The notes beneath the pieces were generated by a model. The model searched no databases. It saw only the letters and a list, made by a program, of their open reading frames with translations, and was not told where the DNA came from. A stretch of 48,260 nucleotides of DNA from Eubacteriales bacterium. GTDB lineage: Bacteria; Bacillota; Clostridia; Oscillospirales; CAG-272. This document shows positions 1-20,519 of the stretch, in pieces. The translations under genes were made by a program, and so were the position numbers. How positions within the stretch are numbered: position 1 is the stretch's first letter; every line of letters begins with the position of its first letter. The stretch lies in the NCBI GenBank assembly GCA_045634425.1, contig JAZRAF010000079.1, positions 1 to 48,260 on the forward strand, written 5' to 3'.

Positions 1-745
1 CCTGTCCGATAAGCGTTCCGAGTATTGCCGCAAGCGAAAATGCTGCGATTCCCATGTGGTCGATCTCAAACAGCTTACCTATGGCGCCCTTTTTGCTCTC
101 TTCTGTCTTAATAACAAGCTTTGCTCTTTCGGCTTCCATATCAGCCTTTGTGAGTTTCGGAATGATCTGAACAAACAGAACAACGCCTATAACACCGAAG
201 ATGTACGCGATACCGTGACCGACGGAAACCGCACCCTCGTAAGCCTCGGAAACGGTAGCCTTTGCCGCGGAGAACGCGGGAGTAGAGGTAAGAGAGCCGG
301 AGAGAAGGCCAACGATCATAGCGGTGAACTCCTCGTGGTTTTCCTCACCCATAACGCCCCTGCCGAAGTAGATGCAGCCAACGGCCGCAAGGCCGCCTGC
401 AAGGATAACGACGAGAGCGAGAACTACGTAGGACTTGAAGTTCTTCTTGAAGTTGCCGAAGAACTTAGGGCCTGCGATGAAGCCAACCGACGTAACGAAG
501 AGGATAAGACCGAGGTTTTCAACGATCTTAAGCGCCTTATCGGTAAAGCCGGGGAGCTGTGCCTCGAGCTGGCTGTAAAAAAGACAGCCGAACACGAGAG
601 CGATGATAAATACGCCTGCATCACCGAGGGAGATGCCCTTGATCGTAATACGGCCAAGTGCAAAGCCTACGGCGATTATAGCGAAGATAGAGAACATAAG
701 AAAGGTTATACCGGAGATCGATACAACGCCGCCAAAAAGATTCAT
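1..745 (-). CDS. AspT/YidE/YbjL (AAE family) antiporter/permease, runs off the left end of the window
   Basis: Not in the ORF track. ATG at 745 lies 15 nt after the flavoprotein stop. Translation MNLFGGVVSISGITFLMFSIFAIIAVGFALGRITIKGISLGDAGVFIIALVFG...LGLILFVTSVGFIAGPKFF...GLLSGSLTSTPAFSAA...GHGIAYIFGVIGVVLFVQIIP shows the GxSLG, GP.FF, GxxTSTP and AYxFGVxG motifs of the family. Frame is open to position 1. Confidence 0.85.
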   Translation of the reverse strand, partial: MNLFGGVVSISGITFLMFSIFAIIAVGFALGRITIKGISLGDAGVFIIALVFGCLFYSQLEAQLPGFTDKALKIVENLGLILFVTSVGFIAGPKFFGNFKKNFKSYVVLALVVILAGGLAAVGCIYFGRGVMGEENHEEFTAMIVGLLSGSLTSTPAFSAAKATVSEAYEGAVSVGHGIAYIFGVIGVVLFVQIIPKLTKADMEAERAKLVIKTEESKKGAIGKLFEIDHMGIAAFSLAAILGTLIGQ

Positions 746-760
746 TTTCCAGCCGCCCCC

Positions 761-2365
761 TTAGATGCTCTTCTGATTGGTGTAGTTGGGGAGAAGCTTG
801 GGAGATACTGCGTCGGTCTTGATGCCGGCCTTCTTGATCTCCTTTTCAAACTGCTCGACGTGCTTAAGGGTAAGCTTGCCGACCTTAACGTCCTTTGCCT
901 TAGCGGCAGCATTCTTACCTGCGCTTCTACCAAATACGATGATATCGAGAAGGGAGTTACCCATAAGTCTGTTCTTGCCGTGGATACCGCCTACGGCCTC
1001 ACCTGCAACGAACAGGTTCTCGATGTTTGTGGTCATACAGTCAGCGCCGATGTCAAGACCGCCGTTCTGGTAGTGGAGTGTGGGATAGATGAGGATGGGC
1101 TCGTATCTGATATCGATACCGTACTTCTCAAACATTCTCCACATTGCGGGAATTCTCTTCATAATAGTTCCCTCTCCGCCGATTTTCTCGATCATGGGAG
1201 TGTCAAGCCAGATGCCCTTGCCGTTGCCGCAATCAACGCCGTTATCGCGCTCAGAGCACTCACGGATGATGGTAGCCGCGGTTACGTCACGGGTCTCGAG
1301 GGGATGCATAAATACCTCACCGTTCTTGTTGACGAGCTTTGCACCAAGGGATCTTACCTTCTCGGTTACGAGAGCGCCGAAGATCTGCTCGGGGAATGCA
1401 ACGCCGGTGGGGTGGTACTGAAGGGTCTCGGCGTAAAGAAGCTTTGCGCCTGCGCGGTAGCCGAGAACGAGTCCGTCAGCGGTTGCGCCGTAGTGGTTGG
1501 AGGTCGGGAAGCCCTGGTAGTGCATTCTGCCCGCACCGCCGGTTGCGATAATAACGGTCTTAGCCTTCGCAACGAGAAGCTCCTTGGTCTCCATATTCAT
1601 AAGAACTGCGCCTGCGGCGTTGCCCTTATCGTCGAGGATAAGCTCGATAGCCGCGGTGAAATCGATAACGGGAATCTGACGGTTCATAACCTCGTCGCGG
1701 AGGGTTCTCATAATTTCAGCACCGGAGTAGTCCTTTGCCGCGTGCATACGCTTGCGCGAAGTACCGCCGCCGTGGGTGGTTACCATAGTGCCGTCGGCCT
1801 CCTTATCGAACTCAACGCCGAGCTCGGAGAGCCACTGAATAGCCTCGGGAGCGTCGCAAACGAGCTTCCGGAGAAGCTCTCTCTTTGCTGCGAAGTGACC
1901 GCCACCGAATGCGTCAACGAAGTGGATAGCGGGAGAGTCGTTGGGCTTATCAGCCGCCTGAATGCCGCCCTCTGCCATCATAGTGTTAGCGTCACCCATA
2001 CGAAGCTTGGTAACTACCATAACCTTTGCGCCTGCCTCGTGAGCCTCGATAGCTGCGGAAGCACCTGCGCCGCCGCCACCGATAACGAGAACGTCGCAAT
2101 CGTAGTCGGGGGTGTCAAGGCATACGCTGTTCTTGTTGATACGGCTGTGTGCCTGAAGGATCTCAGCAAGCTCGGTGGGTACCTTATCGCCCTTGTTGGG
2201 GCCGATGGTAAGCACGGAGAACTGATCCTGCTTATAGTCGGGGTGGAAGGAAGCGAGCACGGTTTCCTTTTGCTCAGCCGTCATACGGGTGGGCTCAAGA
2301 GCAATATTCTTTTCTCTTGCCGCTTCAACGAGTGCAAGGGATTCCTTAAACTGTTCGGAATACAT
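761..2365 (-). CDS. Soluble fumarate reductase/succinate dehydrogenase-like flavoprotein subunit (TfrA/FrdA-like)
   Basis: Rossmann VIGGGGAG; MAEGGI; QYHPTG; ETRDV; HYQNGGL; GEAVGGIHGKNRLMGNSL (dicarboxylate-binding His/Arg of the SdhA/FrdA/NadB family). Has an ~85-aa N-terminal extension. Confidence 0.85.
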   Translation of the reverse strand: MYSEQFKESLALVEAAREKNIALEPTRMTAEQKETVLASFHPDYKQDQFSVLTIGPNKGDKVPTELAEILQAHSRINKNSVCLDTPDYDCDVLVIGGGGAGASAAIEAHEAGAKVMVVTKLRMGDANTMMAEGGIQAADKPNDSPAIHFVDAFGGGHFAAKRELLRKLVCDAPEAIQWLSELGVEFDKEADGTMVTTHGGGTSRKRMHAAKDYSGAEIMRTLRDEVMNRQIPVIDFTAAIELILDDKGNAAGAVLMNMETKELLVAKAKTVIIATGGAGRMHYQGFPTSNHYGATADGLVLGYRAGAKLLYAETLQYHPTGVAFPEQIFGALVTEKVRSLGAKLVNKNGEVFMHPLETRDVTAATIIRECSERDNGVDCGNGKGIWLDTPMIEKIGGEGTIMKRIPAMWRMFEKYGIDIRYEPILIYPTLHYQNGGLDIGADCMTTNIENLFVAGEAVGGIHGKNRLMGNSLLDIIVFGRSAGKNAAAKAKDVKVGKLTLKHVEQFEKEIKKAGIKTDAVSPKLLPNYTNQKSI

Positions 2366-2380
2366 ATCTCACTTACCTCC

Positions 2381-3055
2381 TTACTTTTCGATATCACGGT
2401 TGTTGTAAAGCTCTTTCATCTCCTCGATGGGCTTCTGCATAAGAGCCTCGATGAGGTCGTTGAAATCGCCGTCCTTGATCTCCTTTACGCGATCCTCAAG
2501 GTGACCGCAGCCGGGAGCAAGGTACTTACCGTTGATTCTTCTTGCAAGCATTGCAACCTGGGGATGAGAGATACCCGCAGGGCATCTGGAGGAGCATACG
2601 CCGCACATTACGCAGTCGAAGGACTCCTCAGCGCACTTTTCGAAATCGCCGCGCTGTGCGTATGCAATATACTGCATAACGTTAAGGCCCTGAGTACAAG
2701 CCTTGGTGCAGGCGTTACAGCCGATGCAGGCATATATCTCGGGATAAAGCTGCATCATAACGGTTTCGTTAACGGGGATCTTGTTAATGTCGTAAACCTC
2801 TTTTACGAGGGGGAAGAAAGGAAGAGTCGCAATATACATATTGTCCTCTACCTTGGTCTGACAAGCGAGACAAGCGTGAAGCTCCTTGTCACCCTTTATA
2901 CGGTAAATAGTAGCGCAAGCACCGCAAAATCCGTTTCTGCATCCACAACCGCGAACAAGCTGGTAACCGGCATATTCCATAGCGGTCATAATGGTCAGGT
3001 TTTCGGGTACGTCGTACTTCTTACCGAAAAGAAATATACTTACTGTCTTTTCCAT
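2381..3055 (-). CDS. Fumarate reductase/succinate dehydrogenase-like iron-sulfur subunit ([2Fe-2S] plus 2x[4Fe-4S])
   Basis: CGCRNGFCGAC...LAC [2Fe-2S] motif; CIGCNACTKAC and CVMCGVCSSRCP ferredoxin motifs; adjacent to the flavoprotein. Confidence 0.8.
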   Translation of the reverse strand: MEKTVSIFLFGKKYDVPENLTIMTAMEYAGYQLVRGCGCRNGFCGACATIYRIKGDKELHACLACQTKVEDNMYIATLPFFPLVKEVYDINKIPVNETVMMQLYPEIYACIGCNACTKACTQGLNVMQYIAYAQRGDFEKCAEESFDCVMCGVCSSRCPAGISHPQVAMLARRINGKYLAPGCGHLEDRVKEIKDGDFNDLIEALMQKPIEEMKELYNNRDIEK

Positions 3056-3067
3056 CTGTTTTCTCCT

Positions 3068-3901
3068 TTAATATTCGCTGGGAAGCTCCTCGAGCTCGTC
3101 ACATCTGAAGACGGGGCCGTCCTTGCAAACGTACTTTGCGCCTACGTTACATCTGCCGCATTTACCAACACCGCACTTCATACGAAGCTCGAGGGTGGTA
3201 TATACCTGAGTCTTATCAAAGCCAAGCGCGATAAGACCGTCAAGAGTAAACTTGATCATTATAGGCGGGCCGCAAAGCACCGCGGTCTTGTTGGTGTCGA
3301 AGCCAAGCTCCTTTACGTAGTTGGGAACGAAGCCAACGTGGCCGTCCCAATCGGGCTGGGGGTTGTCGATGGTGAGGTGCACCTTTACACCTGCGTCATT
3401 CGACCACTCCTCGATGATCTCCTTGTAGTCAAGCAGGTCTGCCTTGCTGCGCGAGCCGTATACGATATCGATATCGCCGTAGCGGTCACGGTAGTGGCGG
3501 CAGTAGTTGATTACGGAGCGGAGAGGAGCAAGACCGACACCGCCCGCGATGAAGAGCAGGTTCTTCCCTGCAAATACGTCGTCAACGGGGAAAGGATTGC
3601 CGTAAGGACCTCTGATAGTGATCTGCTGACCTGCCTCGGCCTGGTGGAGCCATTCGGTAACGCAGCCGCACTTCTTGATGGAGAACTCCATATACTCGGT
3701 GTTTGTGGGAGAGGATGTGATCGAGAACATCGCCTCGCCAACGCCGGGGATAGAAAGCATAGCGCACTGACCGGGTCTGTGATCAAACGCCTTCTTACCG
3801 TCGGGGGTAACCACGCGGAAGGTCTTGATATCAGGGGTGTCGATACGTACGTCGGTTATGACGCCGACGGTAGGAATCAAAGTATCGTTTATATTATTCA
3901 C
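3068..3901 (-). CDS. flxA: FAD/NAD(P)-binding oxidoreductase with C-terminal [2Fe-2S] (FlxA/AsrB/PyrK-like)
   Basis: RPGQ, FSITSSP, RGPYG, AGGVGLAP, CGPPIM, ELRMKCGVGKCGRC...CKDGPVF; located in an hdr cluster. Confidence 0.85.
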   Translation of the reverse strand: MNNINDTLIPTVGVITDVRIDTPDIKTFRVVTPDGKKAFDHRPGQCAMLSIPGVGEAMFSITSSPTNTEYMEFSIKKCGCVTEWLHQAEAGQQITIRGPYGNPFPVDDVFAGKNLLFIAGGVGLAPLRSVINYCRHYRDRYGDIDIVYGSRSKADLLDYKEIIEEWSNDAGVKVHLTIDNPQPDWDGHVGFVPNYVKELGFDTNKTAVLCGPPIMIKFTLDGLIALGFDKTQVYTTLELRMKCGVGKCGRCNVGAKYVCKDGPVFRCDELEELPSEY

Positions 3902-4922
3902 CTTTATTTCCTCCGATCTTCTTCATAACCTTAACTATATTCATAGAGATGGGGCATCTTGCAAGGCATCTGCCACAGCCAACGCAGCTGAAAAGACCGT
4001 CGTTATTTTCGGGATAATACACAAGCTTGTGCATAAATCTCTGACGGAATCGCTCCTTTTGTGTGAGTCTGTTGTTTCCGTGAGCCATCTTGGTCAACTC
4101 GGAATACATACAGGAGTCCCAGCATCTGTAACGGATAACACCGTTACCCGTGTTAAAATCTTTTATGTCATAACACTGACAGGTGGGGCAAACGAAGGTA
4201 CAGGTACCGCAGCCAAGGCAGGTCGCGGAGAGCTCATCCCAAGCGGGATCGTTAAAGAGCTCCTTGGTCTTGCCACCGCCAAAGGCATCGGTCGAAAGGT
4301 CCTTAAGAGGAAGCTTATCCATAACCTTTTTGATCTTCGCCTTCTGTGCATCGACTGTCGCAGAGTCGGTGTCCTCAAGGATACCGCCAAGCGAGTTAAG
4401 AAGCGCACTTCCCTTTTCGGTATTAGCCTGAAGGTAGAGCGCATCGCTCTCGCGCCAGCAGGTAACGTCACCTGCGGGGGATGCAGCATCGATGCCAAAG
4501 GTGGTACAGAAGCAGGTCTCGGCAGGCTTGGTGCAAGCAACCGAAACGATGATGCCCTTCTCACGCTTCATAGCGTAGAAGCTGTCACGGGGCTCGGTAA
4601 GGAATACTCTGTCAAGAATATCAAAGCTCTTTACGTCGCAGGCACGCACGCCGAATACAACGAAATCGCCGATTTCCTCTCTTACGTCGATGATCTCGAT
4701 ATTCTTGCCCTCGGTCTTGAAGCGCATAAGGTCCTCAGACTGGGGGAAGAAGAAATCCTTAGGGCTCTTGTTGGTGTTAAGAGCCTCGGACCATACTGCG
4801 CCCTGTTGCCATTCGGTGTAGGATGCAGTGCCGTCGTTGTTGTCAGTGGGGAGATAAAGCTTTGCATTTTTCGCTATTTCTGCGAAAAGAAGGTCGATTT
4901 TTTCAAGAGCGCACTTAAGCAT
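3894..4922 (-). CDS. flxB: 4Fe-4S dicluster protein (FlxB/AsrA-like)
   Basis: GVRACD, CFC, CLGCGTCTFVCPTCQC, WDSC, RFRQRFMHK, CVGCGRCLARCP. Start moved to ATG 4922 (GGAGG 7 nt upstream, overlapping the upstream stop). Confidence 0.8.
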   Translation of the reverse strand: MLKCALEKIDLLFAEIAKNAKLYLPTDNNDGTASYTEWQQGAVWSEALNTNKSPKDFFFPQSEDLMRFKTEGKNIEIIDVREEIGDFVVFGVRACDVKSFDILDRVFLTEPRDSFYAMKREKGIIVSVACTKPAETCFCTTFGIDAASPAGDVTCWRESDALYLQANTEKGSALLNSLGGILEDTDSATVDAQKAKIKKVMDKLPLKDLSTDAFGGGKTKELFNDPAWDELSATCLGCGTCTFVCPTCQCYDIKDFNTGNGVIRYRCWDSCMYSELTKMAHGNNRLTQKERFRQRFMHKLVYYPENNDGLFSCVGCGRCLARCPISMNIVKVMKKIGGNKGE

Positions 4923-5913
4923 TTTCATCCCTCCTGTCAAAAACCTCACCGGGCTCGAGGTCGTCGGTGGTGTAGTTTACAAGGGGAGCTCTGGAGCCGA
5001 CCTCAGCGCCTGCCTGATACTCGCCGTAGAACTCGTTCATATCCTTGATGAACTTACGGTTGAGCAGGTGGAGGGGAATGTTCTGAGGACATACGCGAGA
5101 GCACTCGCCGCAGTCGGTGCAACGGCCTGCAACGTGGAAGGCTCTGATGATGTGGAACATCTTCTCTTCAAAGCTGGTCGTGGGAGACTTGTTCTCAACG
5201 CCGGAGTTCGGGTTGTCGAACACGCACTTCTCACAGGTGCAAGCGGGGCAGGCATCGCGGCAAGCGTTGCAGCGGATGCACTTGGAAAGCTCGCTCTGCC
5301 AGAATGCGAATCTCTCATCGGTGGTCATAGCCTCAAGGCGTGCAACCTCATCGAATCTAGCTGACTCAACGACTTCGCCGTTTTCGCCCATAAGCTCGTC
5401 GAATGCAACGCACTTTTTGCTCTTGCAGTTTATGCAGCGCTCTGCAAGAACGTCGCCGGCGTTGATCACCACGGGCTCGTCAGCGTAGAGGGTGGTAACG
5501 ACGATCTTATCGCCCTCGAAGTCGATCTTCGAGATACCCTCGCCGGAAATTGCCTTTACCTTTGCGATATCAGCCATTCCCTCACAGGGGATGCCGACCG
5601 CATAAACCTTCTCACGGTCAAATCTATGCTCGGTGAGAAGCTGATTAAAGCTGTAAGTATCGCAGGGCTTAAGGAACACGAGGATCTTTCCCTCAAGCTT
5701 CTGTGTCTTTGCAACGAGATACTTAGAGAAGTTTGCGCCGCAGAAATCGTTATACACGAAGCCGGACTTAAGGTCCTCTGCGGTCTTGAAAACGGTAGGA
5801 GTCACGTCGTAGCCAAATTCGCCCGCACCCCAGCCGAGTACACAGCTGACAGTACCGTTTGAAAGAAGCTCGGATGCCTTTTCAACTAACTGTTCACGAG
5901 TTATTTTTTGCAT
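4915..5913 (-). CDS. flxC: 4Fe-4S dicluster protein (FlxC-like, FrhB/FdhB-related)
   Basis: KPCD, GIPC, CINC, CIRCNACRDACPACTCEKC, HVAGRCTDCGECSRVCP. Start moved to ATG 5913 (MQKITRE, GGAGG upstream). Confidence 0.78.
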   Translation of the reverse strand: MQKITREQLVEKASELLSNGTVSCVLGWGAGEFGYDVTPTVFKTAEDLKSGFVYNDFCGANFSKYLVAKTQKLEGKILVFLKPCDTYSFNQLLTEHRFDREKVYAVGIPCEGMADIAKVKAISGEGISKIDFEGDKIVVTTLYADEPVVINAGDVLAERCINCKSKKCVAFDELMGENGEVVESARFDEVARLEAMTTDERFAFWQSELSKCIRCNACRDACPACTCEKCVFDNPNSGVENKSPTTSFEEKMFHIIRAFHVAGRCTDCGECSRVCPQNIPLHLLNRKFIKDMNEFYGEYQAGAEVGSRAPLVNYTTDDLEPGEVFDRRDENA

Positions 5914-6335
5914 CTCAGATCCTCCAATCTCTTGTTCTCGCCAAGTGCCGCTACCTTCTCTGCGAAGTCGTTCATGGTTGCGGCAAACTTTGCGCCCTCG
6001 GCAGCGGATACCCATTCAACACGGGTACGCTCTCTCTCAATACCGAGGTAGTCGAGCATCGAGAAGAGTGCCGCCATACGGCGACGGGTAAAGTAGTTAC
6101 CCGAGGTGTAGTGACAGTCGCCGGGGTGGCAACCGCATATGATAACACCGTCCGCACCTCTCTGGAAGGCGCGAAGAATAAACATAGGATTAACACGGCA
6201 GGAGCAAGGAACTCTGATGATCTTTACGTCTGCAGGGTATGCAAGACGGTTGTTGCCCGCAAGGTCAGCACCTGCGTAGGAGCACCAGTTGCAGCAGAAT
6301 GCAACTATCAAGGGCTTGTATTCATTTACTTGCAT
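5901..6335 (-). CDS. mvhD: Methyl-viologen-reducing hydrogenase delta subunit (MvhD/FlxD) [2Fe-2S] protein
   Basis: FCCNWCSYAGADLAG, RVPCSCRV, GADGV...GCHPGDCHY, WVSAAEG. Confidence 0.9.
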   Translation of the reverse strand: MQVNEYKPLIVAFCCNWCSYAGADLAGNNRLAYPADVKIIRVPCSCRVNPMFILRAFQRGADGVIICGCHPGDCHYTSGNYFTRRRMAALFSMLDYLGIERERTRVEWVSAAEGAKFAATMNDFAEKVAALGENKRLEDLRCKK

Positions 6336-8320: not shown

Positions 8321-8334
8321 TCGTCCTTCCCTCC

Positions 8335-8724: not shown

Positions 8725-9507
8725 TTATACCTCCTTGACACCGAGAGCCTCGGCAAGAAGCTCGGTGAAATAAACAACGGGGATATCCGAGCCGCTCTTT
8801 TCGAGGTTGTACTTGCAAAGGGGGCAGGCGGTGATGATCATCTGTGCGCCCTGTGCCTTAGCGTTCTCGATAATAGCGTTCGAATTCTTCTTTGCCGCAT
8901 CGGGGCTCTCAACCGAGATGTAGCCACCGCAGCACTCGTTTCTTCTGGCGTAAACGACCGCCTCCGCACCGAGGGCGCGGATGAGATCCTCAATAATGGT
9001 GGGGTTCTCGGGGTCGTCCATACGCATTACCTTGTTGGGACGGAGAAGAAGGCAGCCGTAATATGCCGCTATTCTTTTGCCCTTAAGGCCGTTTACGACC
9101 TTTTCCTTTACCTTGTCAAATCCAACGAGGTCGCGGAGCATCTCGAGGTAGTGATATACCTCGCACTCGCCGCGGTATTCGGTATCCTCAGCCATATATC
9201 TGTTGACCTTGTCGCCGAATTCCTTGTTGGTCTGCATAGCGTGGTTGGTCTGCTTTATAACGTTATGGCAGGCGGAGCAAACGGTAACGAGGGGATGACC
9301 CTTCTCGCTTGCTGCCTTAAGTGCGCGAACAGAGGAAAGCTTGGTCGCAACCTCGTTATTGGCGGTGGTGAACACGCCGCCGCAGCACTGCCAATCTTCA
9401 ATCTCTTCCAGAGTTACGCCAAGAGCCTCACAAGATCTGTACGCATATGCGTCAAGATCCTTTGCCTTGTTCTTAAGCGTGCATCCGGGGAAATAACTAA
9501 CCTTCAT
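8725..9507 (-). CDS. hdrB: Heterodisulfide reductase subunit B (two CCG domains)
   Basis: YFPGC...CCGG...CSAC and YYGC...CCGG...ACPLC. Confidence 0.92.
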   Translation of the reverse strand: MKVSYFPGCTLKNKAKDLDAYAYRSCEALGVTLEEIEDWQCCGGVFTTANNEVATKLSSVRALKAASEKGHPLVTVCSACHNVIKQTNHAMQTNKEFGDKVNRYMAEDTEYRGECEVYHYLEMLRDLVGFDKVKEKVVNGLKGKRIAAYYGCLLLRPNKVMRMDDPENPTIIEDLIRALGAEAVVYARRNECCGGYISVESPDAAKKNSNAIIENAKAQGAQMIITACPLCKYNLEKSGSDIPVVYFTELLAEALGVKEV

Positions 9508-9533
9508 TAAATTACCTCCGGTTTATGTACCAA

Positions 9534-10967
9534 TTACAGGATCGAGATAGCGTCGGAGATGGTCTTTTCAAGAGCCTCTCTACCGTACTTGTCTACCTCA
9601 GCCTTGTTCTTCTCACCGTGGGTCAGACAGCCCGCGCCGTTTATACAGCCGGAAATACAAGCCATACCCTCGATAAAGTTGCCGCCAAGAAGCGCCTGGC
9701 TCTTGCTGAGCTTAAGAAGCGCAACGCGGCAGGCCTCGATACCGTCGCAAACGACGGGCTTGATCTCGAAGTCGATGTTCTGCTCCTTCATTGCCTGAGC
9801 TGCCGCATCGGTAAGACCGCCGCTTCTTGCGAAGATACGGCCGAAGTAGGATGCGTTATCAAGCACGCCCTCCTCAAAGGTGGAGAGGTCGAAGTCGCGG
9901 CTGTCGAAGAGCGCCTGAAGCTCCTCGAAGGTAAGAACGGAATCAACGTAGGGCTTGACCGACTCGAGCTGCATCTCTGCCTTCTTTGCGGTGCAGGGAC
10001 CGATGAAGATGACCTTAGAGTTAGGCATATGCTCCTTGATGTACTTTGCAAGCACTGCCATAGGCGACATATTGTGGGAGATGTGCTGAACGAGATTCGG
10101 GAACGCAGACTTGATGTACTGCACGAATGCAGGACAGCAGGAGCTGGTAAGAAGACCCTTTTCGGAAAGCTCCTTAGCCTCCTCCATAGCAACCATATCC
10201 GCACCGAGAGCCGCCTCGATAACGTCGTGGAAGCCAAGCTTCTTAAGGCCGGTGATCACCTGGCCGAGCTTAGCGTAGGAGAACTGGCTGGAGATCGCGG
10301 GAGCAACGATAGCGTATACTCTGTAATCGCTGTCGGGCTTGTTTGCCTTGCTGTTCTTAAGGATCTCGATAGCGTCGATGATGAAGGACTTGTCGGATAT
10401 TGCGCCGAAGGGACACTGATAAACGCAAGCACCGCACTGGATGCACTTGGAGTTATCGATGGTTGCCGCCTTCTCGTCGTTCATCGAGATCGCCTTTACC
10501 TTACAAGCGTTCTGGCAGGGACGCTTGCGGCTTACGATAGCGGTGTAGGGGCAGACCTTGGAGCAGGCGCCGCACTCCTTACACTTGGACTTGTCAATGT
10601 GTGCAACGTGGTTCTGATCGAAGGAGATCGCGCCGAACTTACAAACGTCCTCACAGCGGTGTGCAAGACAGCCGCGGCAGGCGTTGGTAACCTCGTAGCC
10701 GCCTACGGGACACTCGTCACAGGCGATGTCGATTACCTCGATAACGTTGGGGTTTTCCCTGTCGCCACCCATAGCGATCTTAACACGCTCGCCAAGGATA
10801 GCTCTTTCCTTATATACACAGCATCTCATGGTAGCTTCCTTACCGGGAGCAAGCTTTGTGGGAACGTCCATAACGTGCTCAAGAAGCTTATCCTCCCACG
10901 CAAGTCTTGCGACCTCGCGAAGGACCTTATACTTTAAATGCTGTACCTTTGTATCAAACTTTCTCAT
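9534..10967 (-). CDS. Monomeric ferredoxin-type [FeFe]-hydrogenase (group B / HfsD-like)
   Basis: H-cluster motifs TSSCCPAF, GPCTAKKAE and EGMACISGCINGAG; N-terminal RCCVYKER and several CxxCxxCxxxC ferredoxin motifs. Confidence 0.88.
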   Translation of the reverse strand: MRKFDTKVQHLKYKVLREVARLAWEDKLLEHVMDVPTKLAPGKEATMRCCVYKERAILGERVKIAMGGDRENPNVIEVIDIACDECPVGGYEVTNACRGCLAHRCEDVCKFGAISFDQNHVAHIDKSKCKECGACSKVCPYTAIVSRKRPCQNACKVKAISMNDEKAATIDNSKCIQCGACVYQCPFGAISDKSFIIDAIEILKNSKANKPDSDYRVYAIVAPAISSQFSYAKLGQVITGLKKLGFHDVIEAALGADMVAMEEAKELSEKGLLTSSCCPAFVQYIKSAFPNLVQHISHNMSPMAVLAKYIKEHMPNSKVIFIGPCTAKKAEMQLESVKPYVDSVLTFEELQALFDSRDFDLSTFEEGVLDNASYFGRIFARSGGLTDAAAQAMKEQNIDFEIKPVVCDGIEACRVALLKLSKSQALLGGNFIEGMACISGCINGAGCLTHGEKNKAEVDKYGREALEKTISDAISIL

Positions 10968-10971
10968 TTTA

Positions 10972-11919
10972 TTACCAATTTACACCTTTTATAACTTCCT
11001 TGAGTGCCTCTGCGGATGCATGCATCTTTCTAAGCTCCTCGTCGGTGAGCTTCTGGGTGATGATAGAGCGCACACCGGTGTGGTCAACGAGAGAAAGAGA
11101 GCTCAAGCAAACGTCGCTGATGCCGTACTCGCCCTCGTGGAGAGAGGAAACGGTCATTGCGGTCTCAGCACTTCCGCTGAGGGATTTAACGATATGGGTA
11201 GAGGTCATTGCGATACCGTAAACGGTACAGCCCTTACGGGAGATGATCTTACCGCCCGACTTTCTTACGTAGGTCTCAACGTCCTCTCTTGTATACTCGT
11301 TGGGAATGTTATACGCAGATGCGATAGCATCGTTGTAGTCCGCAAGAGGAACGCCTGCGATGGTTGCGCTCGACCAAGCAACGAAGGAGGTATCGCCGTG
11401 CTCACCAAGCACGTTTGCGTGTACCTGCTGCTTGTTTACGTTGTAGATCTCTGCAAGTCTTGTGCGAAGACGGATAGTGTCAAGCACGGTACCGGTGCCG
11501 AACACCTGGTTCTTGGGAAGTCCGGTGTACTTGAGGAATGCGTAGGTAAGGATATCTACGGGGTTTGCAACGAGGATGTAGATAGCGTTGGGAGCTACCT
11601 TAACGATCTCGGTGGAGATCTGCTTGATGATACCTACGTTGGTCTGAACGAGCTCGAGTCTTGACTGACCGGGCTTTCTTCCGATACCCGAGGTGATGAT
11701 AACAACGTCAGAGTCCTTAGCGTCCTCGTAGCTGCCTGCGTATATATCGCAGTTGTCGATAAAGGGGGTTGCCTGCTTTATATCAAGTGCCTCACCGAGT
11801 GCCTTGGAGCTGTTAACGTCGATAAGAACGACCTCGGTTGCCGCACCGCGGGTAAGAAGCGCAAACGCGGTATTAGCGCCAACCGCTCCTGCGCCGATAA
11901 TTGTAACTTTCTTCTGCAT
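10972..11919 (-). CDS. ldh: L-lactate-dehydrogenase-like NAD-dependent 2-hydroxyacid dehydrogenase; Arg in the specificity loop suggests malate dehydrogenase activity
   Basis: IIGAGAVG, GIGRKPGQSRLEL, VANPVD, GTVLDTIR, GEHGD, KGCTVYGIA. Confidence 0.85.
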   Translation of the reverse strand: MQKKVTIIGAGAVGANTAFALLTRGAATEVVLIDVNSSKALGEALDIKQATPFIDNCDIYAGSYEDAKDSDVVIITSGIGRKPGQSRLELVQTNVGIIKQISTEIVKVAPNAIYILVANPVDILTYAFLKYTGLPKNQVFGTGTVLDTIRLRTRLAEIYNVNKQQVHANVLGEHGDTSFVAWSSATIAGVPLADYNDAIASAYNIPNEYTREDVETYVRKSGGKIISRKGCTVYGIAMTSTHIVKSLSGSAETAMTVSSLHEGEYGISDVCLSSLSLVDHTGVRSIITQKLTDEELRKMHASAEALKEVIKGVNW

Positions 11920-11935
11920 TATGATTCTCCTATGA

Positions 11936-13108
11936 TTAGAAATAACTGACTTTTATGCGTTTACCCATCTTTTTAAGGCAGCTTGAAAGCTCCTCAACAA
12001 GGTTCATTTTGATGTTGAAGTTGATGGGAAGGTCGGGGTTCTGGTGGGCGGGGTTGATCGCACGTCCGACGTAGAAATTGATATCCGTCGCTTCCTCGAA
12101 GAGAAGTCGGCTGATAAGGGATGCTCCGTCCTTCTTGAAGTTCCACTCCTCGTAAAGCTCGTTCTCACCAAGGTAGTCCTTTGCAAACTGAATTACCTTG
12201 TTCATCGTGATAACGCCCTCTGTAACGAGGTCAACGCCCTCAATGTAGGCGATGGGGGGAACGTCGCTGCGCTCAAACTTAATGCTTGCAACGACGGGCT
12301 TGCCAAGGAATTTGGCAGCGATGGAGGATGTGGTTCCTCCGCATACGATGTGCTTACCCTCTTTAGAGAAGAAGAGCGACATCATACGGTTTGCGTCATC
12401 CCTGTTGGAGGGAGGACCGAAGAGAATGTTCATAGGAACTCTCTTTCTTATCTTGACGACGCAAGCGGTGGTATCGTCACCGGGCTTGTGTCCGTAAAGC
12501 TTATCACACTCGTCAACGAGCATAGTGGAGAGATTCTTTGCGGTATATCCGCCCGCAACGAGCGCCTGCATAAATGCGGCGATCTCCTCTCTCTTCCAGC
12601 CGAAGTTGTACTTGCCGCCAAGGCCTGCGTGGGGACAGCCGTCACTCATAGCGACGAAAACGTCGTCCTCCTGAAGCTTGATCACCGACTTATAGATCTT
12701 CTTGCCGTCGATGTTCATCTCGGTCTTGGGGTAGTCGTAATTCTCAAAGTTTCTTATGAGTATTACGTGGGGGTTATCGTACTGAATGATCTCTGCGATC
12801 TCGTTATTGAGAAGATGGATGATGGTGAAGGTCGAATACGCAACTCCGCGAAGGGAGCACACGGGAAGCGTTGCCGCAATCGTGGACACGCACTCCTCGA
12901 TAGGCAGACCGGCGGCCATCATCGTGGAAATGATCTTGGAGGTAAGGGTTGAAAGGATACTTGCCTTAACACCCGAGCCAAGACCGTCAGCAAGCACGAT
13001 GACCGTGGAGTTTTCACCCTCCTCGATTACGTCAACGTGGTCGCCGCAAAGCTCTTCTCCGACGTGATTGATGCTTTTATAGCCTATATCTGCACACAAA
13101 TCATTCAT
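11936..13108 (-). CDS. SpoIIE/PP2C-family Ser/Thr protein phosphatase (HfsC-like, hydrogenase-associated)
   Basis: EELCGD, LADGLGSG, MSDG, GDDTT metal-binding motifs; C-terminal CGGTT/EGVDLVTEG domain; start overlaps the sensory hydrogenase stop. Confidence 0.85.
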   Translation of the reverse strand: MNDLCADIGYKSINHVGEELCGDHVDVIEEGENSTVIVLADGLGSGVKASILSTLTSKIISTMMAAGLPIEECVSTIAATLPVCSLRGVAYSTFTIIHLLNNEIAEIIQYDNPHVILIRNFENYDYPKTEMNIDGKKIYKSVIKLQEDDVFVAMSDGCPHAGLGGKYNFGWKREEIAAFMQALVAGGYTAKNLSTMLVDECDKLYGHKPGDDTTACVVKIRKRVPMNILFGPPSNRDDANRMMSLFFSKEGKHIVCGGTTSSIAAKFLGKPVVASIKFERSDVPPIAYIEGVDLVTEGVITMNKVIQFAKDYLGENELYEEWNFKKDGASLISRLLFEEATDINFYVGRAINPAHQNPDLPINFNIKMNLVEELSSCLKKMGKRIKVSYF

Positions 13109-14777
13109 CGACGATAGACTCCTTAAGCTTAGTCAGCGCGATCTTGGTCTCAGCTGCAGTCTCACCGAGAAGGGATGCGATCTCCTGAACGATCCTCATC
13201 TGCTTCTCTACGACCTTGTCAGCAACCTCAACGGTCTGACGGCTGATGCTTTCCTTTCTTTCCTCGGTCTCGACCTCGTCGGTAACGTCACGCATAATGC
13301 TGATAAGCAGGCGTGAATCTGCATCGTAAACGACGGTCTGCTCAACGTACTTCTTGTACTCTGCAAGATAGGTGCGTCTGTTGCGAATGCTTCTGCCGGT
13401 GCTCTTTACCTGAGAGAAGGGAGTGGGGTCAAGAATACGGATGACCGGCTCACCGAGAACGTCGGATGCCGCACGGATATTCATAATCTTGCGCGCGGAG
13501 TTGTTTATCTGCTGTACCTCAAGGTTTTCGTTAAGAACGATAAGACCGTTGGGGGTGTTTCTTACGATGGTATCCGAGAAGCTCTCTGCCTTGTCCTTAA
13601 GGAAAGGAAGACACATCGAGATCTCTGCCTTGCCCTGGATGATCGCGATAGCCTTATCGCGGCAGGAATTGTAGCCGCAGGTGCCGCAGTTAAGCTCGTC
13701 CGACGCCTTGAACTTGCCCATCTGGCGAAGAACGGACATAATCTCGCTCTCGCAGGGAAGGGGAAGCTTGTGCTCGATTGCAGAGAAGTTCTTCACAAGC
13801 TCTGCAGGGGTGGGCTGGTCGACCTCGAAGTCGCGCGTGCCCGCATAGCTTGCAACCTTGAGATAGTCGCTTACAAGCGGCTTTTTGGTTCTGTTCATAA
13901 CAGGACCGCCGATGCAGCTGCCAATGCAGGCAGACATCTCAACGAAGCACTTATGTATCTTTCCGCTTGCGATATCCGCAAGTGCGGTCATACAGTTTTC
14001 AACACCGTCCATAGCCATATAGGTATAGCCGGGGGCATCCTGTGCCATAGTCTTAAGCACGCCGCCCGTGGTCGGGAAGAAGCGCGCACGGCTGTTCTCG
14101 GTAGAGTCGCACTCGTTTTCAAGAGTAACGCCCTCCTTCTCGAGCATTCTGTCAAGCTCCTCGAAGGTCAGAACGGCGTCAACGATATTCTCGTAGTACT
14201 CAGCCTCGTCCTTCTTTGCAACGCAGGGGCCGATGAAAACGGTCTTGGCGTTAGGAATGCGCTTTTTGATATCGCTGCAGTGTGCCTGCATAGGCGACAT
14301 AACGTCTGCCAGATACTGAAGGCACTCGGGGAATCTTTTCTGTATAAGAAGATTGATCGAGTGGCAGCAGGAGGTGATGATAACGTCTCTCTCCTCTTCC
14401 CTGATCATTCTTTCGTATTCGTTTTTAACGATCGTAGCACCGATAGCGGTCTCCTCAACGTCGGTAAAACCGAGCTTCTTGAGCGCGCGGCGCATCGACT
14501 CGATGCCCACTCCGCCGTAATTTGCGATAAAGGAGGGGGCAAGGCTGACGATTACGGGGTCGCCCGACTGGATAAGAACTCTGGTCTTTTCGATGCCGTC
14601 TGCGATCTCCTTTGCATTCTGGGGGCACTGAACCACGCAGTTACCGCAAAGTATGCACTCGTTGCCTATAATGTGTGCCTGGTTTCCTGAAAAGCGAATT
14701 GCCTTTACGGGGCATTTTCTGACACAGCGGAAGCAGGACTTACAGTTCGATTTTTTAAGTGTCAAGCAATTTGCCAT
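13101..14777 (-). CDS. Sensory [FeFe]-hydrogenase with Fe-S and PAS domains (group C, HydS/HfsB-like)
   Basis: N-terminal 2x[4Fe-4S]; H-cluster TSCCH / GPCVAKKDE / EMSACIGSCIGGP; ELNCGTCGYNSC Fe-S domain; PAS-like NTPNGLIVLNENLEVQQINNSA; C-terminal KQMRIVQEIASLLGETAAETK helix. Confidence 0.88.
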   Translation of the reverse strand: MANCLTLKKSNCKSCFRCVRKCPVKAIRFSGNQAHIIGNECILCGNCVVQCPQNAKEIADGIEKTRVLIQSGDPVIVSLAPSFIANYGGVGIESMRRALKKLGFTDVEETAIGATIVKNEYERMIREEERDVIITSCCHSINLLIQKRFPECLQYLADVMSPMQAHCSDIKKRIPNAKTVFIGPCVAKKDEAEYYENIVDAVLTFEELDRMLEKEGVTLENECDSTENSRARFFPTTGGVLKTMAQDAPGYTYMAMDGVENCMTALADIASGKIHKCFVEMSACIGSCIGGPVMNRTKKPLVSDYLKVASYAGTRDFEVDQPTPAELVKNFSAIEHKLPLPCESEIMSVLRQMGKFKASDELNCGTCGYNSCRDKAIAIIQGKAEISMCLPFLKDKAESFSDTIVRNTPNGLIVLNENLEVQQINNSARKIMNIRAASDVLGEPVIRILDPTPFSQVKSTGRSIRNRRTYLAEYKKYVEQTVVYDADSRLLISIMRDVTDEVETEERKESISRQTVEVADKVVEKQMRIVQEIASLLGETAAETKIALTKLKESIVDE

Positions 14778-14783
14778 ATCTCT

Positions 14784-15047
14784 TTACTTCCCTTCGTTTT
14801 CAATAACGTCAAGGATATTCTTCTTAAAGAACTCTCTGAAATTCTCGGGGGTAACGCCTACGTGAACGTCGTCGTTTACCTGAACGGTAACGCCAACGCG
14901 GTTGCATTTACCGATGCAGAAGCTGCCGGTAAGCACTACCTCGTCCTCAATGTGATGCTGGGCAACCGCATTCTCAAGAAGCTCGACGATCTCGGGCGAG
15001 CCCTTAAGATGGCAGGATGAGCCAACGCAAACCTGAACGATCAACAT
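14784..15047 (-). CDS. Thioredoxin-like [2Fe-2S] ferredoxin (NuoE/HfsA-like)
   Basis: VCVGSSCHLKG...GSFCIGKC. Confidence 0.85.
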   Translation of the reverse strand: MLIVQVCVGSSCHLKGSPEIVELLENAVAQHHIEDEVVLTGSFCIGKCNRVGVTVQVNDDVHVGVTPENFREFFKKNILDVIENEGK

Positions 15048-15053
15048 ATTCTC

Positions 15054-15293
15054 TTACACCTTTGCCTTGATCTCGTTGGCGAAAAATTCACCTACGGTAG
15101 CGGGGGTAACCGAGTGGATAACGTCGTCTACCATAACCGAAACGCCGGCCTGGCAGTTACCAAGGCAGAACGTGCCGCCAAGGTCAACCTTATCACCAAG
15201 GTTGTTATCGGTGATGAGCTTCTGAAGCTCCTCAACTACCTGACGAGAGCCCTTAATGTGACAAGAGCTACCAATACAAACTACAACTTTCAT
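15054..15293 (-). CDS. Thioredoxin-like [2Fe-2S] ferredoxin (NuoE/HfsA-like), paralog of the neighbour
   Basis: VCIGSSCHIKG...GTFCLGNC; GAGG RBS. Confidence 0.85.
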   Translation of the reverse strand: MKVVVCIGSSCHIKGSRQVVEELQKLITDNNLGDKVDLGGTFCLGNCQAGVSVMVDDVIHSVTPATVGEFFANEIKAKV

Positions 15294-15316
15294 AAATTTT
15301 TTCCTCGCAATATATA

Positions 15317-15943
15317 TTATTTTTTTATTTTCAACTGTGAATTAAGGTGAGCAAGTGAGAGTGCTAAATTCTCCTGCTTTAAGATAACGTCCCCGGGGAC
15401 GGTGAGTGCACAGGGCGCAAAGTTCCATATCGCCTTGATGCCGCAACCGACGAGCCTGTCGCACACCTCCTGTGCCGAGCCCTGCCCTACGGTGATAATT
15501 CCGATCCTTACGCTGTGGGCGGCGCAGTATTCCTCGATTTCTTTGATCGGGAGGACGGTTTTGTTGTTTGAGATCGAGATGACCTTGTCGTTACAGTCAA
15601 ATCCGGCGAGAATTCTTATTCCGAATTCCTCAAAGCCGTCGTAATCGAGAAGCGCGCGTCCGATCTTTCCCGCACCGACGAGAACGGCGTTGGTGATGTT
15701 CTCATAGCCAAGATGGTATTCAAGGTCGTGCATAAGCTTGATGCGCTCGTAGCCTATCTTCGGCTTGCCCTGGCCGCTTATCAGCGCCAAGTCCTTACGC
15801 ACCTGCACCTCGCCAAGTGAGAGGCCGCGTGCAATTTTGGTTGCTGAAATCGTTGTCGTGCCGTCGTCCGGCAGGTCCTTCAGGTACTGTATGTAAACGG
15901 GAATTCGACCAAGGGTCGGCTTTGGAATAAAGCTTGCGTTCAT
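15317..15943 (-). CDS. rex: Redox-sensing transcriptional repressor Rex
   Basis: IPKPTLGRIPVY, QVRKDL, G.PKIGY winged-helix motifs; VGAGKIGRAL Rossmann; AIWNFAP. Start moved to ATG 15943 (AAGGAG upstream). Confidence 0.92.
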   Translation of the reverse strand: MNASFIPKPTLGRIPVYIQYLKDLPDDGTTTISATKIARGLSLGEVQVRKDLALISGQGKPKIGYERIKLMHDLEYHLGYENITNAVLVGAGKIGRALLDYDGFEEFGIRILAGFDCNDKVISISNNKTVLPIKEIEEYCAAHSVRIGIITVGQGSAQEVCDRLVGCGIKAIWNFAPCALTVPGDVILKQENLALSLAHLNSQLKIKK

Positions 15944-16128
15944 TTGCCCCTCTCCTTTGCTGTTTTTTAGTGCTTTTCGTGCGAAAATCGGTGTAGCACG
16001 ACTCATATAATAAATAGAAGGAAATAATCGATACAAATTTAATCGATATAACCGTGATCGATTAAAAATGCTCCAATAAATGCCATTTAAACGACAGGAT
16101 TGCGAAGTCTAAATGGCGCATTTTAAGA

Positions 16129-16146
16129 TTGATAAATTTTTAACCG
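16129..16146. promoter_or_regulatory. Candidate Rex operator
   Basis: TTGATAA-ATTT-TTAACCG matches 11 of 14 arm positions of clostridial TTGTTAA-N4-TTAACAA and overlaps the predicted +1 of the rex operon. Confidence 0.55.
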
Positions 16147-16151
16147 GTAAC

Positions 16152-16180
16152 ATTCTAGCACAAAAATACGAAAATTTCAA
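16152..16180 (-). promoter_or_regulatory. Sigma-A promoter of the rex-hfs-hdr-flx operon
   Basis: TTGAAA-17 nt-TAGAAT with extended -10 TG. Confidence 0.7.
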
Positions 16181-16233
16181 TAGTAAACGACAAAAATAAT
16201 TAAAAAATACAAAAATATTTTTTATATAAACGC

Positions 16234-16282: not shown

Positions 16283-16302
16283 CCTGTATGAAATTTATCG
16301 AT

Positions 16303-19049: not shown

Positions 19050-19054
19050 AACTC

Positions 19055-19193: not shown

Positions 19194-19199
19194 ACTCTC

Positions 19200-20506: not shown

Positions 20507-20519
20507 GGAGGTACACAAA

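Follow-up and report, generated by a model that had tools for sequence, protein, structure and literature searches.

A predicted Rex-headed operon joins a sensory-hydrogenase gene set to a known Flx–Hdr–fumarate reductase core in a gut Clostridia bacterium

The window, a 48,260-nucleotide stretch that makes up an entire contig of a Clostridia bacterium, carries a three-module operon that we read, at a probability of roughly 0.6, as bifurcating electrons from NADH to fumarate and ferredoxin, with succinate export and control by Rex and H2. The first module, Rex, would sense NADH/NAD+. The second would be an hfs/HydS-type set (two 2Fe–2S proteins, HydS, a PP2C phosphatase and a ferredoxin-dependent group B hydrogenase) into which mdh is inserted, and the third the known succinate-operon core, HdrBCA–MvhD–FlxCBA with soluble FrdBA and an AAE carrier. 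The sequence-only reading had put forward this circuit as novel. However, the accessible texts of two reports already contain its central idea: a succinate operon with ferredoxin-coupled fumarate reduction (PMC7282089) and a tfrAB–flxABCD–hdrABC linkage (PMC6315080). The hdr–flx–frdBA–transporter core is thus known, having been proposed in print, and biochemically it is a proposal (PMC7282089). What is new is the in-line fusion of this core with an hfs/HydS-type cluster and rex, in a gut Clostridia bacterium.

The open-reading-frame listing, Pfam, NCBIfam and analysis of starts and gaps placed 17 genes, all co-directional, on the minus strand between positions 2 and 15943, in the order rex, two small 2Fe–2S genes, hydS, PP2C, mdh, group B hydrogenase, hdrBCA–mvhD–flxCBA, frdBA and AAE. 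With the flxC start set at the ATG at 5913, intergenic gaps range from −35 to +26 nt, bearing out the claim of at least 17 tightly packed co-directional genes (gaps of 26 nt at most). From this spacing we infer that the 17 genes are co-transcribed, and their strong codon bias suggests high expression. The operon boundary is marked by a terminator hairpin with a U-rich run at the end of the upstream PALP gene (16232..16284, minus strand; ΔG −41.5 kcal/mol, z −7.07), which none of 200 shuffles equalled. Because this hairpin is strong, the operon would be insulated and would need its own promoter. The single promoter claimed earlier was recovered as a promoter-like site (16152..16180, minus strand; TTGAAA-17-TAGAAT with an extended −10 TG, 10 of 12 matches), and the stretch from the terminator to rex holds no other. 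Over the whole scan 14 such sites turned up, where shuffles gave 13.3 ± 3.3, and the call rests on the position of the site, the statistics giving it no support. Terminator-like sites numbered 13 in the window (17.1 ± 4.5 expected); all five on the minus strand fall within coding sequence.

The first gene, rex, encodes a redox-sensing repressor of 208 residues (15317..15943; NF003994 235.7 bits, cut-off 130). Its ATG at 15943 is preceded by GGAGAGG, and start analysis replaced an alternative start at 16036 with this one. There follow two small thioredoxin-like [2Fe–2S] proteins (15054..15293, 79 aa, PF01257 32.4 bits; 14784..15047, 87 aa, PF01257 36.4 bits) and a HydS/HfsB-type sensory [FeFe] hydrogenase (13101..14777; PF02906 173 bits, PF04060, PF00989). 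The latter combines 2×4Fe–4S, an H-domain, a four-cysteine FeS domain and a PAS domain, and carries the motifs TSCCH, GPCVAKKDE and EMSACIGSCIGG. The HfsC-like PP2C/SpoIIE-type Ser/Thr phosphatase (11936..13108; PF07228 49.3 bits) has a C-terminal stretch of 166 residues without a Pfam match at E up to 1. The HfsD/HydA2-like group B monomeric [FeFe] hydrogenase (9534..10967) scores 566.2 bits with TIGR04105, against a cut-off of 450, and its H-cluster motifs are intact. The inserted gene encodes an LDH-like malate dehydrogenase of 315 residues (10972..11919), which in NCBIfam passes the L-LDH cut-off (351.6 versus 339 bits) and falls below that for MDH (275.5 versus 283 bits). Alignment to the LDH 1lld places Arg at the Gln102 position, within GIGRKPGQSR, and 53 of the 58 homologues in related loci have Arg at this substrate-specificity position. 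By Arg102, the earlier call of an in-operon malate dehydrogenase holds despite the L-LDH score.

The seven Flx–Hdr genes begin with HdrB (8725..9507), which has two CCG domains (PF02754 in two stretches). All 64 sequences compared share C9, C41C42, C77xxC80 and C192C193, and both CCG motifs are kept, compatible with disulfide chemistry. Next come HdrC (8335..8724; 2×4Fe–4S, Fer4_8 and Fer4_17 in Pfam, TIGR03290 63.7 bits, below the cut-off), the flavoprotein HdrA (6326..8320; NF040770 772.9 bits, positions 1–641 of 777), MvhD/FlxD (5901..6335; PF02662 185.2 bits), FlxC (4915..5913; Fer4 families, 332 residues from the ATG at 5913, a start chosen by comparison with locus L022), the ShyB/HydB/AsrA-like FlxB (3894..4949; PF17179 99.8 bits) and FlxA, the NAD(P)H/FAD/2Fe–2S input subunit (3068..3901; PF00175, PF00970, PF10418). 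Pfam and NCBIfam also identify the FrdB-like iron–sulfur subunit (2381..3055), which has a 2Fe–2S motif and two four-cysteine 4Fe–4S motifs, lacks a CCG domain and shows a mean column identity of 91% in 64 sequences.

The FrdA-like, TfrA-like flavoprotein (761..2365; PF00890 232 bits) has a 90-residue N-terminal extension and no PF02910 match, its C-terminal helical domain being missing. Its best NCBIfam match is TfrA (345 bits, cut-off 718), and NadB models nearly equal Frd models in score (273 bits). All 57 sequences compared share HPT318–320, T334, E335, R338, R359–D360, H431 and R466, which align to E. coli FrdA residues whose catalytic roles we take as given; Asn127 replaces the His of covalent FAD attachment. 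The best structural match of the FrdA model is E. coli FrdA (E 1.9e-25, TM 0.61). Judged by sequence and model, FrdA is a fumarate-reductase-type flavoprotein. The last gene encodes the N-terminal 248 residues of an AAE-family transporter (2..745; PF06826 97.5 bits) and is incomplete because it runs off the contig end; the full-length orthologue in L022 is 409 residues long, and its only domains are two Asp-Al_Ex repeats. The identities originally proposed for Rex, PAS-HydS, PP2C, the group B hydrogenase, HdrABC–MvhD–FlxABC, soluble FrdAB and AAE are therefore confirmed by Pfam and NCBIfam.

Among related loci, the run from hdrB through frdA is uninterrupted in 55/56, mdh lies within the gene chain in 55/62, AAE does so in 39/53 and fumC adjoins the operon in 60/66; in most relatives, mdh–fumC stands directly upstream of the core. 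Two same-genus genomes (98–99% complete) lack FrdA, which makes the operon accessory. The hfs genes behave differently from the core. By our reading of the locus maps, 19 of 80 related loci carry hydS, and its placement takes one of four forms: it precedes the core in line, precedes it with mdh in between, is transcribed divergently (L009) or follows the core (L037). Members of the family sample with hfs downstream of frdA are G059, G067, G080 and G146, whereas in genome G117, from the same genus, hfs occurs by itself. Because 12/53 loci hold hydS, pp2c and hydB in one line with the core, the predicted linkage does recur in relatives; the part of the claim that made hfs a member of one unit gives way, however, to that of a variable add-on outside the conserved unit. 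On gene order, the fusion is a minority arrangement, repeatedly re-formed.

The circuit had also been called self-contained and quinone-free. No fumarase is encoded within the 17-gene operon: the window and its sister L001, which branch late as a single pair, have lost the in-operon fumC kept by 60/66 relatives. In the organism's own genome (78% complete), neither a class II fumarase nor PEP carboxykinase was found, and the only class I fumarase homologue found lies between citramalate-lyase-like and glutamate-mutase/methylaspartase genes. Because it sits in this methylaspartate-pathway cluster, it may be a mesaconase, and the description as self-contained was dropped. The quinone-free claim fared better, as menA was found neither in this genome nor in 5/5 near-complete operon-bearing relatives. 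Rnf is present in the genome.

In the proposed mechanism, NADH electrons would enter through FlxA and pass via FlxBC and MvhD to the HdrA flavin. One electron would travel through HdrC, HdrB and the FrdB clusters to the non-covalent FAD of FrdA and on to fumarate, the high-potential acceptor, and the other would reduce ferredoxin. Reduced ferredoxin would be discharged as H2 by the co-encoded group B hydrogenase or used by Rnf, giving a net reaction of 2 NADH + fumarate + 2 H+ → succinate + H2 + 2 NAD+, and succinate would leave through the AAE carrier. This bifurcation is a reasonable idea; the literature searched yielded no biochemical experiment on whether a Flx–Hdr–Frd complex bifurcates.

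A model of HdrB, HdrC and FrdB predicts that FrdB docks on HdrB/HdrC. It scored 0.79, compared with 0.00 for the best of three controls; this mark is attained by 58/80 solved complexes and 2/110 mismatched pairs, rates that apply roughly here, given custom alignments and three chains. At least 95% of contacts agree between runs, with partner pLDDT of at least 77. FrdB 108–114 (YACIGCN, the first 4Fe–4S motif) contacts HdrB 38–43 (WQCCG) and C9. Sequence searches of the PDB brought up no entry in which a FrdB-like and an HdrB-like chain occur together, which makes it unlikely that the score reflects a memorized structure. The model favours direct wiring of Hdr to fumarate through the CCG site.

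Electron transfer from NADH to fumarate is strongly exergonic by itself, and on these potentials Flx–Hdr could be a plain wire of a non-bifurcating NADH:fumarate reductase, leaving ferredoxin unreduced and the hydrogenase genes as co-regulated neighbours that clear ferredoxin from pyruvate oxidation. The absence of hfs from most related operons and its solitary place in G117 suit this account, because they imply that Frd functions independently of the hydrogenase. We nevertheless consider it unlikely: a simple wire hardly explains why full HdrA and MvhD are kept, with HdrA 88–98% identical in 80 species, and P. thermosuccinogenes physiology has been interpreted as ferredoxin-coupled (accessible text of PMC7282089). 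Alternatively, Flx–Hdr might bifurcate NADH electrons between ferredoxin and a disulfide, with FrdAB re-oxidizing the thiol like thiol:fumarate reductase. The TfrA match, the CCG motifs of HdrB and the mention in PMC7282089 of Flx–Hdr electrons going to 'ferredoxin (and thiols)' point that way. Against it, FrdB lacks the thiol-oxidizing part of TfrB (TfrB 262–487 match HdrB, not FrdB), Pfam reveals no thiol-carrier gene in the operon and the complex model sets the FrdB cluster motif directly on the CCG site, which together render such a shuttle distinctly improbable. Very improbable is a substrate other than fumarate, be it L-aspartate (NadB-like) or mesaconate from the methylaspartate pathway encoded in the genome, despite the NadB scores, the missing fumC and an AAE family that includes an aspartate:alanine antiporter (NF003440, whose 73 bits fall well short of the cut-off). 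In most relatives mdh–fumC lies immediately upstream, fumC loss is confined to one late-branching pair, and an FeS subunit and NADH input would be senseless for an oxidase.

The bifurcating reading can be set against known systems. FlxABCD–HdrABC of Desulfovibrio vulgaris, reportedly described by Ramos et al. in 2015 with a DsrC-type disulfide as proposed acceptor, has all seven subunit types found here, whereas in the window the module comes with FrdBA and the 17 operon genes include none recognizable as DsrC-like. The methanogen TfrAB and tubeworm-symbiont tfrAB–flxABCD–hdrABC clusters share the TfrA-like flavoprotein, non-classical FeS partners and Flx–Hdr linkage; they serve the reverse TCA cycle in the symbionts rather than fermentation (accessible text of PMC6315080), and TfrB fuses the FeS and CCG parts that are separate here as FrdB and HdrB. 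Compared by description, the Pseudoclostridium thermosuccinogenes 'succinate operon' (Koendjbiharie et al. 2020, PMC7282089, accessible text, citing a 2019 preprint by Koendjbiharie & van Kranenburg) has the same order of seven Flx–Hdr genes, two anchorless fumarate reductase genes and a putative succinate carrier, and the same proposed coupling of NADH-driven fumarate reduction to ferredoxin reduction. It begins with a fumarate hydratase, which the window lacks, and Rex, the sensory hydrogenase, phosphatase, hydrogenase and mdh are not described for it there.

The sensor set resembles the Ruminococcus albus HydS cluster and Thermoanaerobacterium hfsABCD, in which an NADH-consuming fermentation branch is co-transcribed with a sensory [FeFe] hydrogenase that bears a PAS domain, a Ser/Thr phosphatase and a ferredoxin-dependent hydrogenase (accessible texts of PMC6776011, PMC5707799 and PMC11837493). 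In the operon, two small 2Fe–2S proteins occupy the hfsA place, and no kinase is present. The hydrogenase is group B (TIGR04105) rather than the group A1 of R. albus, and the NADH sink is MDH with Flx–Hdr–Frd, forming succinate, rather than AdhE, forming ethanol (PMC6776011).

Regulation would probably involve de-repression through Rex at high NADH/NAD+. A weak Rex-box candidate lies just 3′ of the −10 (16129..16146; three mismatches to TTGTKAANNNNTTMACAA; two at the homologous L001 site). Of 66 related loci, 33 have a box with at most two mismatches ahead of the first operon gene, against about 1.4 expected from overall density. Among the 13 scanned loci that begin with rex, only one has such a box, and this, like the three mismatches in the window's own box, counts against Rex control. 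By analogy with R. albus, high H2 may raise expression through HydS and PP2C; no kinase or phospho-acceptor regulator was found among the operon genes. Once H2 stops a bifurcating hydrogenase from disposing of NADH, succinate would take over as the cell's NADH sink. The fusion parallels R. albus, in which the sensory hydrogenase, phosphatase and ferredoxin-only hydrogenase are co-transcribed with AdhE and regulated 111-fold with H2 (accessible text of PMC6776011): where that organism turns to ethanol, this bacterium would turn to succinate.

The operon consists of 17 minus-strand genes at positions 2–15943, defined from an open reading frame (ORF) listing together with Pfam and NCBIfam matches, with gaps between adjacent genes of −35 to +26 nt (the flxC start having been reset to 5913). 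The first gene is rex, assigned as a Rex protein by NCBIfam. It is followed by genes for two thioredoxin-like 2Fe–2S proteins of 79 and 87 aa, which are NuoE-like by Pfam, and for a 558-aa sensory [FeFe] hydrogenase, HydS (13101–14777, minus strand), which combines 2×4Fe–4S, an H-domain, a four-Cys FeS domain and PAS (PF02906, PF04060 and PF00989). The PP2C/SpoIIE phosphatase gene (pp2c; PF07228) begins within the last 8 nt of hydS. Next come the gene for a 315-aa LDH/MDH-family dehydrogenase (mdh; 10972–11919, minus strand) and that for a group B [FeFe] hydrogenase (hydB; TIGR04105, 566 bits against a cut-off of 450), the latter 26 nt from hdrB. The seven Flx–Hdr genes (hdrABC and flxABCD; matched by Pfam and NCBIfam in the order hdrB, hdrC, hdrA, mvhD, flxC, flxB, flxA) form one contiguous single-strand block, directly downstream of which lie genes for an FrdB-like FeS protein and then an FrdA-like flavoprotein, again by Pfam and NCBIfam. 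At the 3′ end lies an AAE-family carrier gene (aae; PF06826), which the contig edge cuts after 248 codons. The assembly comprises 1.91 Mb in 163 contigs and is 78% complete; the window is the entire contig C79 (48,260 bp), and the missing 3′ half of aae was not found in the other 162 contigs.

The sequence-only reading of a single co-directional operon of about 16 kb is borne out by the 17 genes, their tight spacing, one leading promoter-like site and an insulating hairpin upstream. The 3′ end of the upstream neighbour, a PALP gene, carries a hairpin and U-run (ΔG of −41.5 kcal/mol, z of −7.07), after which a promoter-like TTGAAA-17-TAGAAT site with an extended −10 element is found at 16180–16152. 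All five minus-strand terminator-like sites lie within genes, and the total of 13 compares with 17.1 expected in shuffles. Internal promoter-like sites at 11087–11060 (10/12, within mdh) and 15341–15314 (9/12) were rejected as indistinguishable from chance. A 1,290-aa plus-strand ORF at 56–3928 was likewise rejected as a gene: it has no Pfam match and mirrors four genes codon for codon on the opposite strand. These genes share one register and avoid TTA, CTA and TCA, which make up 17 of the 5,293 codons across the whole operon, so the ORF is a codon-bias artefact. Other very long antisense ORFs lacking Pfam matches occur on the plus strand at 6239–8536, 9525–10937 and 22285–26832 (the last opposite the gene at 22033–26940), the largest antisense frames being 1,290 and 1,515 aa. 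Elsewhere in the window, the minus strand at 18977–36835 holds a cluster of MoxR-AAA (34255–35313), DUF58 (33371–34255) and BatA/VWA (28898–33374) genes, flanked by five Pfam-less proteins of 1,635 (22033–26940), 542, 421, 543 and 518 aa.

The predicted fumarate reductase encoded in the operon departs from the established types. Quinol:fumarate reductases (FrdABCD/SdhABCD) have a membrane anchor, a quinone, a covalent-FAD His and a C-terminal helical domain, and none of these was seen for the window enzyme. FrdA matches the FAD_binding_2 domain alone, with no match to Succ_DH_flav_C (PF02910); Asn127 occupies the position of the covalent-FAD His; none of the 17 operon genes encodes a membrane anchor; and no menA was found in the 78% complete genome. 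The residues that align with the catalytic set of Escherichia coli FrdA are invariant in 57 sequences, and E. coli FrdA is the best structural match of the FrdA AlphaFold model (pLDDT of 76, pTM of 0.81). FrdA also carries a 90-aa N-terminal extension that belongs to no known family. Its best family match is TfrA, at 345 bits, below the cut-off of 718. In TfrAB, moreover, the FeS part of TfrB is fused to CCG domains, whereas the 224-aa FrdB has one 2Fe–2S motif and two four-Cys 4Fe–4S motifs and no CCG domain. Both CCG motifs are retained in HdrB.

As a test of direct wiring between Hdr and the reductase, a complex of HdrB, HdrC and FrdB was modelled with custom alignments of 64 rows. The 120 FrdB homologues listed of 6,641 matches are 82–98% identical and, being near-identical, add no diversity to such alignments. 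The model scored 0.79 (individual runs of 0.79, 0.81 and 0.78), with the best of three controls at 0.00. Of 80 solved complexes, 58 attain this mark, as do 2 of 110 mismatched pairs; the counts are only a rough guide for a three-chain model because the calibration used single-chain pairs and other alignments. The runs share at least 95% of contacts, and partner pLDDT is at least 77. In the predicted interface, FrdB residues 108–114, in the first 4Fe–4S motif, pack against HdrB residues 38–43, in the first CCG loop, and against C9; the same FrdB motif also contacts the HdrC tail. In profile searches of the PDB, HdrB matched only methanogen HdrB chains (five sequences) and FrdB only remote RnfC and SdhB entries, so no comparable solved complex is apparent. 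The modelled contact favours a direct transfer of the high-potential electrons to fumarate. No assay that couples fumarate reduction by NADH to the reduction of ferredoxin was found in the papers searched.

The idea at the core of this arrangement has been in print since 2019–2020. In that proposal, NADH is oxidized by Flx–Hdr, whose bifurcated electrons pass to ferredoxin and, either directly or via thiols, to a novel fumarate reductase (PMC7282089). As described, the succinate operon of P. thermosuccinogenes shares with the window seven Flx–Hdr genes, an anchorless FrdA/FrdB pair and a 3′ putative carrier, and differs in having a fumarate hydratase gene, which the window operon lacks. The full-text literature searched contains no description of this core fused to an hfs/HydS cluster (hydS, pp2c and hydB with small 2Fe–2S genes) and rex. 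What is new here is therefore the fusion and not the core, which was already published.

The carrier differs from its characterized relatives. AAE transporters (AspT/YidE/SucE) have two Asp-Al_Ex repeats and central TrkA-C domains. A full-length orthologue from a related locus (L022) is 409 aa long, with Asp-Al_Ex repeats and no other Pfam domain, and the equivalog scores of the window protein fall far below the cut-offs. It is a short AAE variant that may carry succinate.

The hfs portion has its own precedents. The PAS-fused H-domain, the adjoining Ser/Thr phosphatase and the ferredoxin-type hydrogenase of the hfsABCD/HydS–HydA2 cluster are all found in the window; the first gene of hfsABCD is HfsA, in place of which the window has the two NuoE-like 2Fe–2S genes. 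In R. albus, the sensory hydrogenase, phosphatase, ferredoxin-only hydrogenase and AdhE form one cluster, and co-culture with an organism that consumes H2 lowers it 111-fold (PMC6776011). A Ser/Thr kinase neighbour is also reported there, and none is encoded among the 17 window proteins. By analogy, the window operon looks like the R. albus design with succinate replacing ethanol.

To establish how widely these parts are joined, an HdrA-anchored scan with one genome per species was performed, which yielded at least 588 confirmed relatives; the best 80 loci were kept, every one from a Clostridia assembly of gut or rumen origin. Linkage was counted only at loci with enough flanking DNA, hence the differing denominators. 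The stretch from hdrB through frdA is contiguous in 55 of 56 loci, fumC lies directly upstream of hdrB in 60 of 66, mdh is in the chain in 55 of 62 and AAE in 39 of 53. The hydS, pp2c and hydB genes are in the chain in 12 of 53 loci, and rex in 12 of 53. The linkage of hfs to hdr–flx–frd proposed from sequence thus recurs in relatives, though in a minority. Read from the locus maps, hydS occurs at 19 of the 80 loci in four layouts: in line as hfs–mdh–fumC–hdr; as in the window, with mdh between pp2c and hydB (L001, L004, L007 and L054); divergent (L009); and downstream of aae (L037). The fumC gene is missing from the window and L001 alone. On an HdrB and FrdA tree of 57 rows, eight of which had too little upstream DNA and were left unlabelled, the hfs label changes 15 times, at least eight of these forced by well-supported branches alone, and it clusters no more than shuffled labels do. 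These results indicate that the hfs link was made or broken many times. At four loci (L002, L008, L014 and L055), a lone small 2Fe–2S gene resembling either of the two in the window lies directly before mdh in operons otherwise devoid of hfs genes; this could be what is left of an hfs module since lost, or a normal subunit.

Distribution was also examined in 150 evenly drawn genomes of the same family. FrdA was matched (E ≤ 1e-40) in 79 of them, and 61 of those 79 have ortholog-level FrdA (at least 68% identity; 7 partial, counted by hand). HydS is present in 70 of the 150. It lies 1.0–2.3 kb beyond frdA in G059, G067, G080 and G146; in G056 and G138 the two share a contig but are 67 kb apart, and in the other genomes HydS is on another contig or absent. 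No FrdA match was found in the two same-genus genomes, G027 and G117, which are 98–99% complete. G117 has a stand-alone fdx–fdx–hydS–pp2c–hydB cluster without mdh and, 3.8 kb upstream of it, a rex homologue beside a 905–930-aa ORF. Synteny with the same-genus genomes showed only the PALP gene in common beside the operon site, in G117, and yielded no clean insertion site. The variable linkage and the FrdA-less same-genus genomes point to the window operon as an accessory, modular assembly, and the succinate module has probably moved between lineages. Among the FrdA orthologues, one is split into two frames (G059:C16:1465-3037) and two carry one in-frame TAA each (G035:C15 and G089:C12); these may be pseudogenes or assembly errors.

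The 315-aa dehydrogenase scores above the NCBIfam L-LDH cut-offs and slightly under those for MDH, and the names of its PDB matches likewise favour an L-lactate dehydrogenase at 10972–11919. However, its GIGRKPGQSR segment aligns with PRQKPGQSR of the LDH 1lld, placing Arg at the position of Gln102, where, by the Q102R rule, Arg specifies MDH and Gln specifies LDH. Of 58 homologues in the related loci, 53 share this Arg; the remaining five gave no pattern match, two of them being truncated. We set aside the lactate dehydrogenase assignment because of this residue and the mdh–fumC context in relatives, and read the protein as an LDH-like malate dehydrogenase, though the HMM scores favour LDH.

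The proposal that the operon is a self-contained circuit did not survive: it includes no fumarase, tblastn found no FumC homologue in the window's own genome, including the other 162 contigs, and neither a class II fumarase nor PEP carboxykinase was found in this 78% complete assembly. The one class I fumarase homologue found in the genome, with both alpha and beta subunits, sits on contig C97, within a complete methylaspartate-pathway cluster (G000:C97:31290-40010, equivalent to 4290–13010 of locus L098). This cluster encodes citrate/citramalate-lyase-like ACP, beta and alpha subunits, the class I fumarase/mesaconase alpha and beta subunits, B12-binding MutS, MutL, MutE and methylaspartate ammonia-lyase; its content suggests glutamate fermentation. 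The homologue may be a mesaconase, since it lies between the citramalate-lyase-like genes and those for glutamate mutase/MutL/methylaspartase. Class I fumarase enzymes are promiscuous. An oxaloacetate-decarboxylase/pyruvate-carboxylase-type subunit is encoded in the genome.

The two hydrogenases of the operon differ at the H-cluster. The motifs are intact in the catalytic group B enzyme, whereas in HydS TSCCH replaces the TSCCP of catalytic enzymes and the other two motifs are retained. The C-terminal 166 aa of the phosphatase belong to no known family, and Pfam found no kinase domain or phospho-acceptor regulator among the 17 operon proteins. In 33 of 66 loci, the first operon gene is preceded within 350 nt by a Rex-type palindrome with at most two mismatches, against about 1.4 loci predicted from the density over all loci (0.0585 per kb), a background that AT-rich spacers would raise; the candidate site in the window, at 16129–16146, has three mismatches. 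Rnf genes are present in the genome, and a second [FeFe] hydrogenase match, on contig C116, has a NuoF-like gene 2.6 kb away and could represent a multimeric, NADH-linked enzyme.

Reduced ferredoxin from bifurcation could drive ion pumping via Rnf or yield H2 via the in-operon group B hydrogenase. We also considered, as an unlikely arrangement, that this hydrogenase is a physical part of the Hdr–Flx–Frd machine, a ferredoxin-free, fumarate-driven hydrogenase, with HydS/PP2C setting the electron exit by dephosphorylation; in the window, hydB adjoins hdrB. If true, the reaction would be 2 NADH + fumarate + 2 H+ → succinate + H2, the fermenter could dispose of NADH electrons as H2 even when H2 pressure is high, and HydS/PP2C would choose between H2 and ferredoxin-to-Rnf energy conservation for the low-potential electron.

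The predicted FrdB–HdrB contact bears on which acceptor bacterial Hdr complexes use, and points to fumarate, reached through a direct FeS wire, and not to a disulfide. Succinate, and propionate made from it, are rivals of methanogens for the reducing power available in ruminant guts, and the relatives identified here are from assemblies of rumen and hindgut. A quinone-free, possibly energy-conserving fumarate reductase, if switched on by H2 and NADH sensors along with a ferredoxin hydrogenase, would explain how abundant uncultured Clostridia re-route electrons as H2 rises, much as R. albus does using ethanol.
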